Source of the DNA: Candidatus Woesearchaeota archaeon
Lineage (GTDB): Archaea > Nanobdellota > Nanobdellia > Pacearchaeales > GW2011-AR1
Direction: 5' to 3'
DNA length: 42,788 bases
Assembly (NCBI GenBank): GCA_964355745.1
Contig: CAYHEN010000002.1
Location: 1 to 42,788 of the forward strand
Shown piece after piece: positions 23 to 21,812 of this stretch; the stretch's first letter is position 1; the number at the start of each line of letters is the position of its first letter. The position numbers were made by a program, and so were the translations under genes. The notes beneath the pieces are model-generated. The model was given only the letters and a program-made list of their open reading frames with translations. It was not told the origin of the DNA and did no database searches.

Positions 23-42
23 TTCATAGTTAAATAAATAGA

Positions 43-109
43 CGAGCAAAGCGAGTTCAATTTTCGTCCTATGAACTTTGGTTCATATCTCGTCGAATTC
101 AGTGAAGCG
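43..109 (+). repeat. 67-nt structured element E1 ending exactly at the rpl37ae ATG
   Basis: CGAGCAAAGCGAG + 14 nt + hairpin TATGAAC-TTTG-GTTCATA + 22-nt tail; aligns without gaps to 358..424. Confidence 0.85.
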
Positions 110-613: not shown

Positions 614-654
614 CTCGTAACTCCGCTGGTATGGATTACACGCGAAATCGTTTG
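614..654 (-). repeat. degenerate GA-bracketed hairpin element (A5)
   Basis: minus strand AA-ACGATTTCGC-GT-GTAATCCATAC-CA-GCGGAGTTAC-GA-G; resembles 11391..11443 and 21746..21788. Confidence 0.7.
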
Positions 655-2733: not shown

Positions 2734-4383
2734 ATGATAAACCAGACAAACAACAAATCATTAAGAGTTTTTGGATTGAGTGTATTAGTATTGTTCACTC
2801 TCTTGAGTTTTGCTGGTGCGGCAATAACTCTTACTCCAACTTCAGTGACTTTCAACAAGTTTGAACTAACTAAATCATTTACAATAACTACCGGTACTGA
2901 TAATACTACTCTTACTTTACCTACTACTGTTACAATTTCAGATAATCAAAATCCTGCTAATACTATAATAGTGACATTTGGTACCCCCGTTATAACAGGA
3001 ACCGCAAATCCAGGACCAAATACTACTAATTTAGATATAGGAGAGACTGCAACAATAACTGTTACTTCTACTCTTCCAAGTAATGATTTTACTTTCGGAA
3101 CTTTTTCAGCAACTGCCAATATAACTGCAAGTACAGACACAGCCGGTAAAGTTTTAACACTCAACTTCCAAAACTCACCAAATGAAGAAGCAGACAATGG
3201 AAATTTAAATATAGATGATGTTGATATTTCTGTTACTAACGGCTTTGGAGATGACACAGAATGGTTCCCATTAGATGAAATCAGAGTTAATGTTGATGTA
3301 AGCAATGATGCAAATGATGAAATGAGAAATATTGTTGTTGAATGGGGACTTTATGACAAGCAAAATACGAGATGGGTAATACAGGAAGAAGAAAGCGATT
3401 TTGACTTAGATGAAGATGATGGAAAAACATTGGAATTTTCTTTTATTCTTGACAACATGAACCGGATTGAAACTGATGGAGATTATGTGTTCTATGTATG
3501 GGCTACAGGAGATGATAAGGAAACTGATAACGAAACTTCAACTTTTTCTTCTTTGCCTATTGATATAGTTATTGACAGCCATTTTGTAGTCCTTGATTCC
3601 CTTGAGCTTGTAGGAACAGCTTCATGCGGTGATACAATTCAAGTTTCAGGAGAAGTTTGGAATATCGGAGATGATGATGAACAGGATGTTTATCTCAAGG
3701 TTTTCAACACACTATTAGGAATTTCACAGAGAGTAGATTTAGGAGATATAGACAGCCTTGAGTCTAAAGATTTGTTATTCAATATTGTTATTCCAGAAGA
3801 TGCAGAAGAAGGAAAATCTTATGATATAACTTTCTTAGTATATGATGACAGTGATGACATATTTGAAAACAGCAATGGAGATGAATCAGAATTCAGCCTT
3901 CCATTAAATATTGCACCAGGAAGCTGTTCAGCAGAAGTTCCTGTTGTAGTAACTGCTAGCTTAGAAACAGCAGCAAAAGCAGGAGAAGAATTCACTGTCA
4001 AGGCAACAGTAACCAACACAGCTTCAATAAAGAAAACCTTCATTTTTGAAGTAGGCGGATATACTGATTGGGCTACATTCGTTTCTGTAGACAAGCCAAG
4101 CTTGACTTTAGATGCAGGAAAATCAACAGAGGTTTTAATCAAGTTAAAGGCAAATGAAGGAGTTTCTGGAAGCAAGAACTTCAACATTGTTATGAAAGAA
4201 GGAAGCAAGGTTTTAACACAGCCAGTTTCAGTTTCAGTAGCAGGAAAAGGATTCAGCCTTACAGGATGGATTTCAGGATTGGGGCTTGGCGGAAATACTT
4301 ACTTATGGGCTATTGGAGCGTTGAATGTCCTTTTAGTCTTGATAATAATTGTGGTAGCAGTGAGAGTTGTCAGGAAGAAGTAA
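2734..4383 (+). CDS. secreted acidic surface (S-layer-like) glycoprotein with Ig/CARDB-like domains and C-terminal TM anchor
   Basis: signal peptide, D/E/T-rich beta segments, VWNIGDDDE CARDB-like motif, C-terminal TM then RVVRKK. Confidence 0.8.
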   Translation: MINQTNNKSLRVFGLSVLVLFTLLSFAGAAITLTPTSVTFNKFELTKSFTITTGTDNTTLTLPTTVTISDNQNPANTIIVTFGTPVITGTANPGPNTTNLDIGETATITVTSTLPSNDFTFGTFSATANITASTDTAGKVLTLNFQNSPNEEADNGNLNIDDVDISVTNGFGDDTEWFPLDEIRVNVDVSNDANDEMRNIVVEWGLYDKQNTRWVIQEEESDFDLDEDDGKTLEFSFILDNMNRIETDGDYVFYVWATGDDKETDNETSTFSSLPIDIVIDSHFVVLDSLELVGTASCGDTIQVSGEVWNIGDDDEQDVYLKVFNTLLGISQRVDLGDIDSLESKDLLFNIVIPEDAEEGKSYDITFLVYDDSDDIFENSNGDESEFSLPLNIAPGSCSAEVPVVVTASLETAAKAGEEFTVKATVTNTASIKKTFIFEVGGYTDWATFVSVDKPSLTLDAGKSTEVLIKLKANEGVSGSKNFNIVMKEGSKVLTQPVSVSVAGKGFSLTGWISGLGLGGNTYLWAIGALNVLLVLIIIVVAVRVVRKK

Positions 4384-10584: not shown

Positions 10585-10929
10585 ATGACAACAAGAGAGA
10601 TAACAATAAAAGAGTCTAAAGGAGCATTTTCACTCTTCAAAAAATCCTCTAAAGGCAAAGAAGGGTATGATTTTTCAGGAATATCTGCCTTAAGGCAATT
10701 ATTGAATAATGAGAAAGCCAGGATTTTGAGTGTCATAAAAACAGAAAAACCTGCCTCTTTATACGATTTAGCTAAAAAGCTGAACAGGAGTTTTAAGTCA
10801 GTCCACGATGATATCAGACTTTTAGAGAGATTTGGCTTTATAGAACTCGTTGAAGAGAAAGTGAATAACAGGACAAGACACAAGCCTCATTTAATTGCAG
10901 ATACTATAACAATACATCTCAAGATTTAA
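10585..10929 (+). CDS. winged-HTH protein (HVO_A0114-like regulator/antitoxin)
   Basis: KPASLYDLAKKLNRSFKSVHDDIRLLERFGFI HTH. Confidence 0.8.
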   Translation: MTTREITIKESKGAFSLFKKSSKGKEGYDFSGISALRQLLNNEKARILSVIKTEKPASLYDLAKKLNRSFKSVHDDIRLLERFGFIELVEEKVNNRTRHKPHLIADTITIHLKI

Positions 10930-11474
10930 TAATAGACATTAAGCGAAACTTCATAATTATTGCCCCTCTTGGCGAAATCCTGAAATGCTCCTTTATAATT
11001 TCTTGTTTCATTTCCTTTTTTAAACAATAATCTTTCTTGCTCTCCAACACTTATGCTGAATTTATACCCTTTTACAGCGCTTTGTTCATTGATATTCCAC
11101 GCATTTTCTATTATTCCCTTTAAACTCTCATTGAGGATTTCGCAACTGTCTCTTTCATCAAGGCACTTTTCTTCTCTCTCACAAGCCACAATTAAATCCT
11201 GTATTGATAAAAATTCTATCTGATTCTCACACTCGCTCGTGTATTGCAATGCAGATTGTATAAAACTTTCTACTTCATAACTCTCAACAGCACTCTTGTC
11301 AGGACTTCTAAGCAAAAACCCAAGCAAAACCAGTAAAACCACTGAAACTATGACTACGATTACTACAAATCCCACCATTTCTTCTTGTCCCGAGCGATTT
11401 CGCGAGAGAGTCGGTTTAATCCAGTGACGAGCGAAGTCGCGAGCAGTTTTGATTTTATTTGTTTTTATTTTCAT
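10926..11474 (-). CDS. class III signal peptide (type IV pilin-like) protein
   Basis: RSG|QEEMVGFVVIVVIV hydrophobic stretch; start 11474 by ATGA overlap and GAGGAG SD. Confidence 0.8.
   Translation of the reverse strand: MKIKTNKIKTARDFARHWIKPTLSRNRSGQEEMVGFVVIVVIVSVVLLVLLGFLLRSPDKSAVESYEVESFIQSALQYTSECENQIEFLSIQDLIVACEREEKCLDERDSCEILNESLKGIIENAWNINEQSAVKGYKFSISVGEQERLLFKKGNETRNYKGAFQDFAKRGNNYEVSLNVYY
11391..11443 (+). repeat. GA-bracketed hairpin element A1, in-frame within a pilin leader
   Basis: C-GA-GCGATTTCGC-GA-(23 nt with TAATCCA)-GA-GCGAAGTCGC-GA-G. Confidence 0.85.
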
Positions 11475-12052
11475 GTTCTCTTCTCCTCTGAACTCACCAT
11501 AAGTCGTGCAAGTTCGCATTTATCATATATCATAATTCCATTTGATTCTTTTCTGCATAAGGAAACAAAATTAGAGATAGCAGGCAGAGTGTTCACGTCT
11601 TTGTCAAGAATATTCAAGATATCACAATCAGGATAGTTGCTCTCACTGCAAACGACATTTCCTTCGCTTGGATAAACTTTCCTTAATTCTATCTTTGCCA
11701 CTCTCCAGAGCTCTGAATCTTCGTCTACTCTGTACTTTAAAGCGATTAATTTGTCAAAATCAACACAGCTTGTTCTGCTACTCCCAAATGCATTTCCGCA
11801 TGAAAATTCAGGAGAATTCGCTAATTTAGAAACAAGGAGCATTGCATTCTGCTCTTCAAGATTAGTCGCTGTTTTCTTGACATTATACAATCTTATAGAC
11901 AAGAAGAAAATACCGACAAGTATGAATAAGAAAGTCACAGCTACAAGCATAAAAGTCATCTGCTGGATTTTCATTTGTGCCGAGCGACTTCGCGGAAGAC
12001 AGGCTCGTGATAAACGAGCGAAGTCGCGAGTTGTTTTTGTTATTTTTCTCAT
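11471..12052 (-). CDS. class III signal peptide (type IV pilin-like) protein
   Basis: RSA|QMKIQQMTFMLVAVTFLFILVGIFF; Cys-containing globular domain. Confidence 0.8.
   Translation of the reverse strand: MRKITKTTRDFARLSRACLPRSRSAQMKIQQMTFMLVAVTFLFILVGIFFLSIRLYNVKKTATNLEEQNAMLLVSKLANSPEFSCGNAFGSSRTSCVDFDKLIALKYRVDEDSELWRVAKIELRKVYPSEGNVVCSESNYPDCDILNILDKDVNTLPAISNFVSLCRKESNGIMIYDKCELARLMVSSEEKRT
11981..12030 (+). repeat. GA-bracketed hairpin element A2, in-frame within a pilin leader
   Basis: C-GA-GCGACTTCGC-GG-(20 nt)-GA-GCGAAGTCGC-GA-G, perfect 10-bp stem. Confidence 0.85.
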
Positions 12053-15392: not shown

Positions 15393-15470
15393 ATTAAGCC
15401 GAGCGATTTCATGAGTATCGCGCCAAATTGTGAGCGAAGTCGTGAGTTAAAGAAACTGTAGGTTGTCTCG
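15393..15470 (+). repeat. GA-bracketed hairpin element A3 with conserved tail
   Basis: ATTAAGCC-GA-GCGATTTCAT-GA...GA-GCGAAGTCGT-GA-GTTAAAGAAACTGTAGGTTGTCTCG; matches 21739..21812. Confidence 0.85.
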
Positions 15471-20411: not shown

Positions 20412-20747
20412 TCAAGAAGATGTGTTCTGCTGAATATCTTTTATAATAATCCCTTTTTTCTTCCATACAAATTCATCCTCTTCAAATCTTCCGTTCCTGT
20501 TTTTATCTTCCTGCACAGCAATCAATTCAAAAGAAACAGTATCTTCTTCAGTTCCAATTATTTTATAATAATACCTTAAATCTTCTCTTTTATCTTTATC
20601 TGTATCATATCCTTCTGTAATAAAATTACCATAATTACGGACAATAAGGGTTTGATATCTTTCATAATCTTTTATATTATTGCCTAAAGAAGTGCATCCA
20701 ATAATTGTTCCTATTCCAGCAAGCGCTATTAATTTTTTTAATCTCAT
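20412..20747 (-). CDS. hypothetical lipoprotein
   Basis: MRLKKLIALAGIGTIIGC lipobox-like; DTDKD and DKNRNG loops. Confidence 0.6.
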   Translation of the reverse strand: MRLKKLIALAGIGTIIGCTSLGNNIKDYERYQTLIVRNYGNFITEGYDTDKDKREDLRYYYKIIGTEEDTVSFELIAVQEDKNRNGRFEEDEFVWKKKGIIIKDIQQNTSS

Positions 20748-20807
20748 TAAACAAAGATTATCCCCCCTTTTAATAAACATTGTGATATTTTATCCCTGTC
20801 ATCACTT

Positions 20808-20920
20808 TCGTGTCAGTCGTCTACTCAGACTGATGCTCATTTATGGATTATCTCGCATCAATCTTCTATTCGGACTAATACTCGTCACTGGATTAAATTG
20901 TCTCTCTCGTATTAGTCTTC
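20808..20920 (-). repeat. tandem GA-bracketed hairpins A6/A7 plus a fifth arm, downstream of PCNA
   Basis: five 10-mers each flanked by GA; AGACTAATAC/GTATTAGTCC and AGATTGATGC/GCATCAGTCT; both loops contain TAATCCA. Confidence 0.85.
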
Positions 20921-21637
20921 GGTCTCCACTCTCGGAGCGAGCAAGAAATTCAGCTCCATGTGTTCTGTCTTGATATCTATCTTTAAGGGATGGTCGTTAG
21001 CGAAATGCAACAAAGTTTTCTCGCATAGCTTTGCTCCCTTGAGGAATTTCTGGAGATATTCCAGACTGTATTTGGATTTGCATTCTTCTGCTTCTATCTT
21101 CGCTTCGTCTCCAGAAAATTCGCTTCTCGCAGAATTCAATCCTTTTGACTCAATAATAAATTCTCCCTTTTTTATTATGAAAGAACACGCGTCAGAAACA
21201 ACAATGCAATCTTCAATAGCAGAAATCAAATCCACAGAAGAAATTTCCACTCTTGTGCTGTAATCTAATGTAGGCATTTCTTTTTCCTGCCCCTCTACTT
21301 CAATTAAATTCAAGCCAAAGTTTCTTCTTATCTTGTCGATAACTTGAATGTTCAGAAAATTTTCTCTCTTTTCCAAAATTAAAGAAGTTGAGCTACTGCA
21401 TCTCCTCAGAATTCTCTTCAAACTGTCTAAGTTAATTCCCAAAACTTCGTTTCCTGTCTCAAACTGAGAAAACGCGCTTTTCGGAAGCCTGAATCTGACC
21501 ATTGCAACGTTCGCTGGGTCGATTGCAGTTATGCTCATGCCGAATTCACTAATCTTGATTCTCACTTCTGTAACTAACTCAGATATAACCTCTATTACTT
21601 TTGATAGCAAACTCGGGTCTTCTAATTTTACTAGCAT
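20912..21637 (-). CDS. pcn: DNA polymerase sliding clamp PCNA
   Basis: AIDPANVAMV, SKYSLEYL, FLLAPRVE motifs. Confidence 0.98.
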   Translation of the reverse strand: MLVKLEDPSLLSKVIEVISELVTEVRIKISEFGMSITAIDPANVAMVRFRLPKSAFSQFETGNEVLGINLDSLKRILRRCSSSTSLILEKRENFLNIQVIDKIRRNFGLNLIEVEGQEKEMPTLDYSTRVEISSVDLISAIEDCIVVSDACSFIIKKGEFIIESKGLNSARSEFSGDEAKIEAEECKSKYSLEYLQKFLKGAKLCEKTLLHFANDHPLKIDIKTEHMELNFLLAPRVETED

Positions 21638-21684: not shown

Positions 21685-21812
21685 GCGATTTCCATCAGGG
21701 GCAGTTAGAGAAATCGCTCAACAGCGCCAAGAGGGAAAATTAAGCCGAGCAACTTTGCGTTTTAATCCATAATTAGCAAGGTTGCGAGTTAAGAAAACCG
21801 TAGGTTGTCTCG
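21685..21812 (+). repeat. composite element: module B + hairpin A4 + tail
   Basis: B matches 12068; A4 stem GCAACTTTGC/GCAAGGTTGC with TAATCCA loop; tail matches 15446..15470. Confidence 0.85.

Follow-up and report, generated by a model that had tools for sequence, protein, structure and literature searches.

A single family of short hairpin repeats, in one genus of tiny, Woesearchaeota-like groundwater archaea, is the source of introns in tRNA genes, of hairpins between genes and of in-frame inserts in proteins; it behaves like a small non-autonomous repeat that enters its sites as a whole unit. The window analysed here (42,788 nt, contig 2 of a 792-kb genome in 57 contigs, with 33% G+C and 85.5% completeness) holds ordinary units of this family and, at the end of its PCNA gene, a tandem pair of units whose outer stems repeat the last bases of that gene. 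For the PCNA locus we put at about one half the probability that two tandem units and one leftover arm of a short, non-autonomous hairpin repeat lie there, with arms rebuilt by template switching. The family and its link to the gain of tRNA introns are a more important result than the PCNA stem itself.

Anatomy of the hairpin pair at the PCNA gene end

Read on the minus strand, positions 20920 to 20808 consist of the series GA, arm, GA, loop, GA, inverted arm, GA, run through twice and followed by a single third arm (Table 1). The gene at whose end the series lies is recognizable as PCNA by profile search (PCNA_N, 1.7e-15, and PCNA_C, 5.3e-06), and PCNA orthologues were found in 14 of 16 congeners. 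A first-pass annotation, made from the letters of the window, had noted that the first arm overlaps the last PCNA codons and that four more GA-flanked 10-mers follow as alternately inverted variants of it; both observations are correct, since X1 takes in the stop codon, and rcX1, X2, rcX2 and X3 were all located. The loop of the first hairpin (which it labelled A6) had been said to agree at 20 of 23 positions with that of another unit (A1), and this too holds: the two differ by three mismatches, the second loop lying at 11406-11428 (+), and they are the only two matches in the window, none of 100 shuffles giving any.

Table 1. Features of the PCNA gene end and of other family units in the window; positions are those of the window, and minus-strand features at the PCNA gene end are given in reading direction.
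Feature	Position	Strand	Remarks
PCNA gene	20912..21637	-	241 aa, ends ..LLAPRVETED; ORF list and translation; stop TAA = 20914-20912
Opening GA	20920-20919	-	part of a PCNA Glu codon
Arm X1 (unit 1)	20918-20909	-	outer 7 nt = last PCNA bases and stop; inner 3 nt past the stop
Loop module a	20906-20884	-	23 nt, GA on either side
Arm rcX1	20881-20872	-	X1 inverted, 9/10 pairs
Linker GAATAGA	20871-20865	-	collinear with the GAGTAGA linker of ordinary-arm tandem arrays (contig 3 array compared)
Arm X2 (unit 2)	20864-20855	-	second direct copy of the PCNA end; in-frame TGA 20860-20858
Loop module b2	20852-20839	-	14 nt, contains TAATCCA, GA on either side
Arm rcX2	20836-20827	-	X2 inverted, 10/10 pairs including one G.U
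Linker GAGTAGA, lone third direct arm copy X3 and closing GA	20826-20808	-	
X3	20819-20810	-	no inverted partner; in-frame TGA 20815-20813
Closing GA	20809-20808	-	
Ordinary unit, loop a (A1)	11392..11442	+	antisense and in frame in the signal-peptide region of prepilin-like gene 10926..11519
Ordinary unit, e-like loop	11982..12029	+	antisense, N-terminal region of the next prepilin-like gene
Ordinary unit, loop f	15401..15445	+	intergenic
Ordinary unit, b-like loop with TAATCCA	21747..21787	+	between PCNA and the next gene
Decayed b-type unit	615..653	-	8/10 stem pairs

The TGA triplets of X2 and X3 are in frame with the PCNA stop, 54 and 99 nt downstream of it, the two units having periods of 54 and 45 nt and forming a 45-nt direct repeat with 72% identity. 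The real PCNA end of a congener, G010 (numbers of this form denote congeners, and G000 the present genome), has the same 10 nt as X2, and the b2 loop type is also seen with ordinary arms in G012. A short segment thus recurs in direct, inverted and direct orientation within about 100 nt (X1, rcX1, X2, rcX2, X3), and the order X, rcX, X' is found likewise in G016, G012 and G010. The minus strand of 121 nt folds into two hairpins at -24.7 kcal/mol (z = -3.93, none of 200 shuffles being as stable), the plus strand of the same 121 nt giving z = -2.09 with 6 of 200 shuffles as stable. The window holds 20 copies of the motif TAATCCA where 9.9 would be expected; none of 100 shuffles reaches 20, and only a few of the copies sit in hairpins.

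An independent Logan contig of 662 nt spans 20731-21392 with zero differences, and the hairpin pair is therefore not a misassembly peculiar to this genome bin. Among the DNA sequencing contigs aligned to the PCNA locus no hairpin-less allele was seen; the contig of one relative matches PCNA up to 20914 and diverges beyond.

A family of hairpin repeats with fixed arms

An ordinary unit consists of C-GA, a 10-bp arm (consensus GCGAYTTCRC), a loop module, the complementary arm and GA-G, the arm GCGAYTTCRC pairing with GYGRRRTCGC. Units are 45-72 nt long, often a multiple of three, and follow one another in tandem with a period of 48-54 nt; their 10-bp arms are inverted repeats, as are the terminal repeats of MITEs, and at least six types of loop module occur on the ordinary stem (labelled a, b, b2, c, d, e and f). 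The genome contains 60 hairpins of the form GA-N10-..-N10'-GA in which 9 or 10 of the 10 pairs are made, compared with 30.2 +/- 5.4 for 20 shuffles. A degenerate pattern of the unit matches 15 times in this genome and 1-22 times per genome in 12 of 16 congeners (22 units in G010, 17 in G003); beyond the genus it finds matches in one of 20 other genera of the same taxonomic family and in none of 24 genomes of other families, and a reversed control pattern finds none anywhere.

The stems of 60 distinct units covary. In 53 of them the bases outside the outer GA pair (C-G in 43, T-A in 7, T.G in 3); stem position 7 shows C-G in 53 units and T-A in the other 7, and position 8 shows G-C in 41 and A-T in 16; the central positions 4, 5 and 6 are T.G in 41, 39 and 28 units respectively, and with this G.U/G.T middle only one strand can fold. 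Among the loops, a 15-nt core of loop a is present in six copies in the genome, five of them on the ordinary stem, and a 13-nt core is invariant in these six copies, in three of four copies in G016 (the fourth is one base off) and at 19 metagenome loci, several of which are the same loci as this genome's own. Pairing within loop a (GUC with GAC) shows no covariation among the copies. At two places in G010 (contig 5, 61401-61469, and contig 9, 35209-35277) the core of d, the loop of the tRNA introns, stands reversed between ordinary arms, as if loops could flip there.

Both units behind PCNA have the framework of this family: GA at all four stem ends, arms of 10 nt, loop modules also found in other units (a and b2), and linkers of the GARTA type, all collinear with the ordinary order CGA, 10 nt, loop, 10 nt, GARTA, GA, next arm. 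Their arms depart from the family's arm sequence (GYRAYTTYRY / GYRRDRYYRB), being of the type AGAYTRA: the inner 3 bp of the stems are family-type (CAC/GTG and TGC/GCA), and the outer 7 bp are the PCNA end. The first-pass annotation had suggested that arms are not carried as fixed terminal repeats and may instead be templated from the local target. The second part stands at the PCNA locus, where the arm derives from the PCNA end, and fails as a general property of the element, as does the first part: the arms are fixed in 30 of the 32 e-loop hairpins of the genus (33 pattern matches less one chance match without a hairpin), the two exceptions being PCNA sites, in five of the six a-loop units of this genome, and at all 19 metagenome loci. 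With arms fixed in those e-loop hairpins and in every other a-loop copy, target-derived arms are not the rule of the family.

The PCNA site among congeners

Across 16 orthologous loci the PCNA protein ends in ETED* at 10, ETDD* at five and EEND* at one, and in nine genomes a plain AT-rich spacer follows the stop. As this end is common to hairpin-less genomes, the last codons are ancestral and were not donated by the element; the opposite possibility raised in the first-pass annotation, that the element brought in the stop region, is ruled out by the ETED*/ETDD* terminus at 15 of the 16 loci. Its proposal to look for a pre-existing arm at empty orthologous sites was borne out as well, the PCNA-overlapping AGAYTRA part being present in nine genomes with no hairpin behind it.

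Four congeners (G016, G010, G012 and G007) have a hairpin at the same place, with a 5' arm that is the PCNA end. The loop is of type e in G016, G010 and G012 and of another type in G007, and the stem is degenerate in G012. The 3' arm tracks the stop codon, with TTA opposite TAA or TGA (TAA/TTA in G000 and G016) and CTA opposite TAG in G007. A further direct copy of the PCNA end follows after a linker in G000, G016, G012 and G010, and in G012 the downstream copy is a 9-mer that agrees at every base with the real PCNA end of G010. The stem, which had been called new, is unique within this genome, where each arm occurs exactly once in 792 kb and none recurs at unrelated loci; it is not new in a wider sense, as the same site-specific stem stands behind PCNA in the four congeners and its inner 3 bp are those of the family. 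The PCNA tree groups the five genomes with hairpins in a single clade (support 88/95) that also takes in four empty ones; of the tree's 12 inner branches 7 are open, and within the clade it does not separate one gain from several.

Empty and filled sites, and units in protein-coding genes

The 5' flank of a unit usually ends in CC, and about half of the units are antisense to the surrounding genes. At a site upstream of a prepilin-like gene, the one that holds A1 in this genome, four genomes are filled and 11 empty; the empty ones lack the entire unit with its two arms, and a comparison of the 11 empty (..GTCC^TTT..) with the four filled genomes reveals no visible target-site duplication. The PCNA site has a direct target copy of about 9 nt that is not seen elsewhere.

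Units also lie in frame and free of stops inside protein-coding genes, as Rickettsia palindromic elements do. In the two prepilin-like genes of the window, 10926-11519 (-) and 11471-12052 (-), they are translated antisense and in frame within the charged leader, just ahead of the G/A-Q motif, and the reading frame is open through the unit at all four filled signal-peptide sites; at such leaders, ORF callers would wrongly extend or truncate genes. In metagenome relatives, aIF5B contains one to three units of 16-17 codons each, in frame after NKIDNISGW and open at five of five loci (L148, L152, L157, L162 and L165); the aIF5B of this genome (contig 8) has none.

The b-type units on contigs 1, 5, 13, 24 and 28 and at 615-653 (-) of the window have conserved flanks of more than 30 nt which, on the opposite strand, read as the Shine-Dalgarno sequence and ATG of unrelated housekeeping genes, the unit lying antisense in their leaders. 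A reading of the b-type units as small proteins was rejected: the frame through the hairpin varies between copies.

Units as tRNA introns and at tRNA ends

Homologous units of 70-73 nt occupy the canonical intron position of tRNA-Arg, tRNA-Gln and tRNA-Glu genes. In the tRNA-Gln(CUG) gene of this genome (contig 10, 17548-17693, minus strand; locus L218/L221) the unit is a 73-nt canonical intron, and from sequence and fold it can be drawn as helix, 3-nt bulge, 4 bp, 3-nt bulge and helix. The exons are contiguous in eight congeners, at 97-100% identity to the exons here (identical in the three intron-less sequences inspected), and in G003 the position is taken by an unrelated intron of 44 nt, a pattern that looks like recent, repeated intron gain. 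The genome encodes the splicing endonuclease EndA as well as RtcB, and ARAGORN reports 23 tRNA genes without its intron option and 38 with it.

That related units are genuine tRNA introns, together with the presence of EndA and RtcB, raises the question of whether the hairpins behind PCNA are themselves bulge-helix-bulge introns, cut from the PCNA transcript by the tRNA splicing endonuclease; were 54 or 99 nt excised from one direct copy to another, the protein would still end in E-D-stop. We regard this as extremely improbable. The succession helix, 3-nt bulge, 4-bp helix, 3-nt bulge cannot be formed with the flanks at the PCNA site (by folding and inspection), where plain hairpins fold instead, in contrast to the tRNA-Gln unit, and the first copy has a stop of its own, so that splicing is not needed.

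Several other arrangements were seen around tRNA genes. Introns of Ser, Val and Lys tRNAs have in common with the d loop a module GAACC..GGTTC..ACCTCC. Units of c type lie antisense 2-3 nt upstream of tRNA-Leu and tRNA-Lys (contig 1, ~57914-57963, plus strand; contig 15, ~11290-11340, minus strand), with a third copy at a contig edge (contig 3, ~36-85, plus strand). An array directly after tRNA-Val on contig 19 (~3372-3520, minus strand) has a b-type unit nested within the loop of an a-type unit. Units of a type occur directly after tRNA 3' ends or within partial copies of them. These partial copies repeat the T-loop and 3' end of a local tRNA, either 8-100 nt downstream of the real tRNA or apart from it (contig 21, ~3330-3450; contig 20, ~10930-11100; contig 24, ~4184; contig 11, ~12026; loci L003, L009, L153 and L163); a unit interrupts them immediately behind ..TCC, an inverted T-loop copy stands in front of them, and their spacers share a small hairpin with a TGAAAA loop. 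In G016 (locus L003, 1585-1961, plus strand) a hairpin unit and a partial copy of a tRNA-Phe 3' end are followed, some 40 nt further on, by the gene for an archaeal RNase P RNA.

Candidate functions and mobilizing enzymes

Searches against Rfam gave nothing at the gathering threshold for the whole window, matches at chance level only for 20700-21000, and for eight hairpin loci only tRNAs and one RNase P RNA. A K-turn was rejected on inspection, as GA comes 0, 2 or 4 nt behind the stem and not 3, and a box C/D RNA likewise, there being no Rfam match above chance. A CRISPR-like reading, with the arms as palindromic repeat and the loops as spacers, fails because the would-be spacers are a few conserved families common to several species.

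Strictly conserved loops and maintained pairing could mean a function of some kind. The units might act as single-stranded RNA elements, for instance as binding sites of a genus-specific protein or as processing signals, those behind PCNA being 3'-UTR or intercistronic regulators in which selection keeps the stem and the loops are kept for recognition. The strand-specific G.U pairing and the covariation (which extends to the pair beyond GA), the invariant or nearly invariant 13-nt core of loop a across this genome, G016 and the 19 metagenome loci, the change in the 3' arm that compensates for the stop codon and the stable fold (z = -3.93) would all agree with such a role. We nevertheless think it unlikely, given that around half of the units are antisense to surrounding genes and that units are translated in frame within proteins, that copy number ranges from 0 to 22 among congeners (with none by pattern in 4 of 16), that orthologous sites can be occupied or empty and differ in their loops, and that neither an Rfam match nor a drawable K-turn with the standard 3-nt bulge was obtained.

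As to mobility, short imperfect palindromes that fold on one strand, lie in clusters and have a conserved flanking motif recall REP/BIME- or PATE-like elements, which an IS200/IS605-type (Y1, RAYT-like) transposase moves in single-stranded form, and this genome does possess one Y1_Tnp gene (contig 22, 522-932, minus strand; locus L167), a single IS200-like gene whose own flanking hairpins are unrelated to the family. Yet only 2 of the 17 genomes have Y1_Tnp, compared with 13 that have the hairpins, and G010 and G003 lack the gene; together with the different sequence of the hairpins beside the transposase, this led us to reject the IS200/RAYT link, and movement by such an enzyme is very unlikely. 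Reverse transcriptase (RVT_1) was not found in this ~85%-complete genome, so that the Y1_Tnp and RVT_1 searches yielded no mobilizing enzyme, and viral contigs gave no match to the a-loop and e-loop patterns.

Origin of the PCNA hairpins

Under the reading we prefer, insertion of a family unit followed by template switching, units would arrive whole, usually just after ..CC, and would persist where they are harmless: between genes, at tRNA ends, in frame in tolerant parts of proteins, and in anticodon loops, from which they could be removed as bulge-helix-bulge introns. One unit may have landed two codons before the PCNA stop (..ACC^GAA GAY TRA), the point after ACC being suggested by collinearity and by the ..CC^ preference at other sites. 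An ordinary unit at that point would put about ten foreign residues in place of the C-terminal E-D. The outer 7 bp of the present 5' arm are instead a copy of the displaced PCNA end, with which the protein still ends in E-D-stop, and those of the 3' arm an inverted copy, and the displaced end itself remains downstream. Template switching during replication, of the kind that corrects quasi-palindromes and yields direct-inverted-direct triplications, would have rebuilt the arms and restored the frame, and selection on the PCNA terminus would have kept the product. Later loop exchange, or re-insertion and duplication of units, could then account for the loops of today, which are a and b2 in this genome, e in three congeners and a further type in the fourth. 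The hairpins would, on this account, need no function of their own at this locus. The first-pass annotation had likewise invoked fold-back or template switching, with which the direct, inverted and direct arrangement of the PCNA end is compatible.

Against the preferred reading, no intermediate allele, with an ordinary-armed unit at the PCNA site, was seen, and the replacement of both outer arm halves needs at least two events. The open branches of the PCNA tree, the failure of the Y1_Tnp and RVT_1 searches to yield a mobilizing enzyme, and the strict conservation of loops and pairing weigh against it as well. Moreover, four different loops on the special stem imply either that loops were exchanged despite having hardly any homology beside them or that the arms were made anew several times, and these four loops are explained equally well or better by target-templated insertion at the PCNA site. 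In that alternative, which concerns the PCNA site only, fold-back priming or template switching would accompany each insertion, such that repeated insertions of different loops receive the same stem and leave a ladder of displaced copies (X1, X2 and X3). It would account for the four loop types on one site-specific stem in five genomes, for the three in-frame direct copies of the PCNA end found here with two inverted copies between them, and for the identity of X2 with the real PCNA end of G010, as expected of an older displaced terminus; the inverted T-loop copy that abuts a direct copy at five loci, in the partial tRNA 3'-end copies near a-units, is of a similar kind. We hold it to be unlikely all the same, because arms are fixed elsewhere (30 of 32 e-loop hairpins and all other a-loop copies) and the whole unit is missing at empty sites, because a mechanism that templates arms should act at many sites and not at one, and because the PCNA site has the family's sequence in both linkers and in the inner 3 bp of the stem.

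Implications

The PCNA locus offers a rare case in which an insertion at the end of an essential gene has seemingly been repaired by copying the displaced codons, and it shows how stems can be rebuilt from local sequence. More broadly, with filled and empty orthologous sites at hand, intron gain, the ..CC insertion preference and the fate of units in essential genes can be compared within a few genomes. For annotation, the units create false N-terminal extensions and hide tRNA genes.

A 2026 Asgard preprint treats the route by which archaeal tRNA introns arrive as open. We tentatively raise a proposal that we ourselves think improbable: the units may be an active source of archaeal tRNA introns, an enzyme-less mobile element copied by host replication or repair through template switching, with the PCNA end caught in the act of using target sequence for a stem. 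If this were true, the fate of a unit would depend on its landing site, a spliceable intron resulting in an anticodon loop and a peptide insert where it falls in frame, and bulge-helix-bulge introns would have a concrete and testable route of arrival.

Comparison with known systems

In the literature searched on DPANN archaea and Woesearchaeota we found no specific description of such elements, and several known systems resemble them in part. REP/BIME elements with RAYT, and MITEs, are also small, non-autonomous, clustered repeats that form hairpins; unlike these, the present units have no linked Y1 transposase, show no visible target-site duplication at the filled and empty site, and bring their GA flanks as part of the element.

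The Rickettsia palindromic elements (RPEs), as described in PMC1779305, are likewise short palindromic repeats of a reduced genome that occur both between genes and in frame within them, and different RPE families are reported there to proliferate in different lineages. RPEs are bacterial and 100-150 bp long, whereas the units here are archaeal and 45-72 nt long, combine a fixed 10-bp stem with interchangeable loops, and also serve as tRNA introns. RPEs are not known to have a transposase of their own.

In Thermoproteales, similar intron sequences in different tRNA species have been read as intron transposition (PMC4033280), and the homologous 70-73 nt introns in tRNA-Arg, -Gln and -Glu, with a tRNA-Gln intron missing from eight congeners, form a comparable picture. 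The difference is that the stem and loop modules described here are also found between genes, inside proteins and behind PCNA; the literature searched contained no report of intron-type modules that occur outside tRNA genes as well.

Finally, template switching is described as both creating and repairing stems (PMC8794818), and small inverted triplications as arising from replication errors and being removed by slippage (PMC13334657). Like the products so described, the PCNA site has a direct, inverted and direct segment, with both sides of the stem changing together. What would set it apart is that the switch took place on an inserted repeat unit, that the copied segment is only 7-10 nt long, and that a loop of the family lies between the first direct copy and the inverted one.
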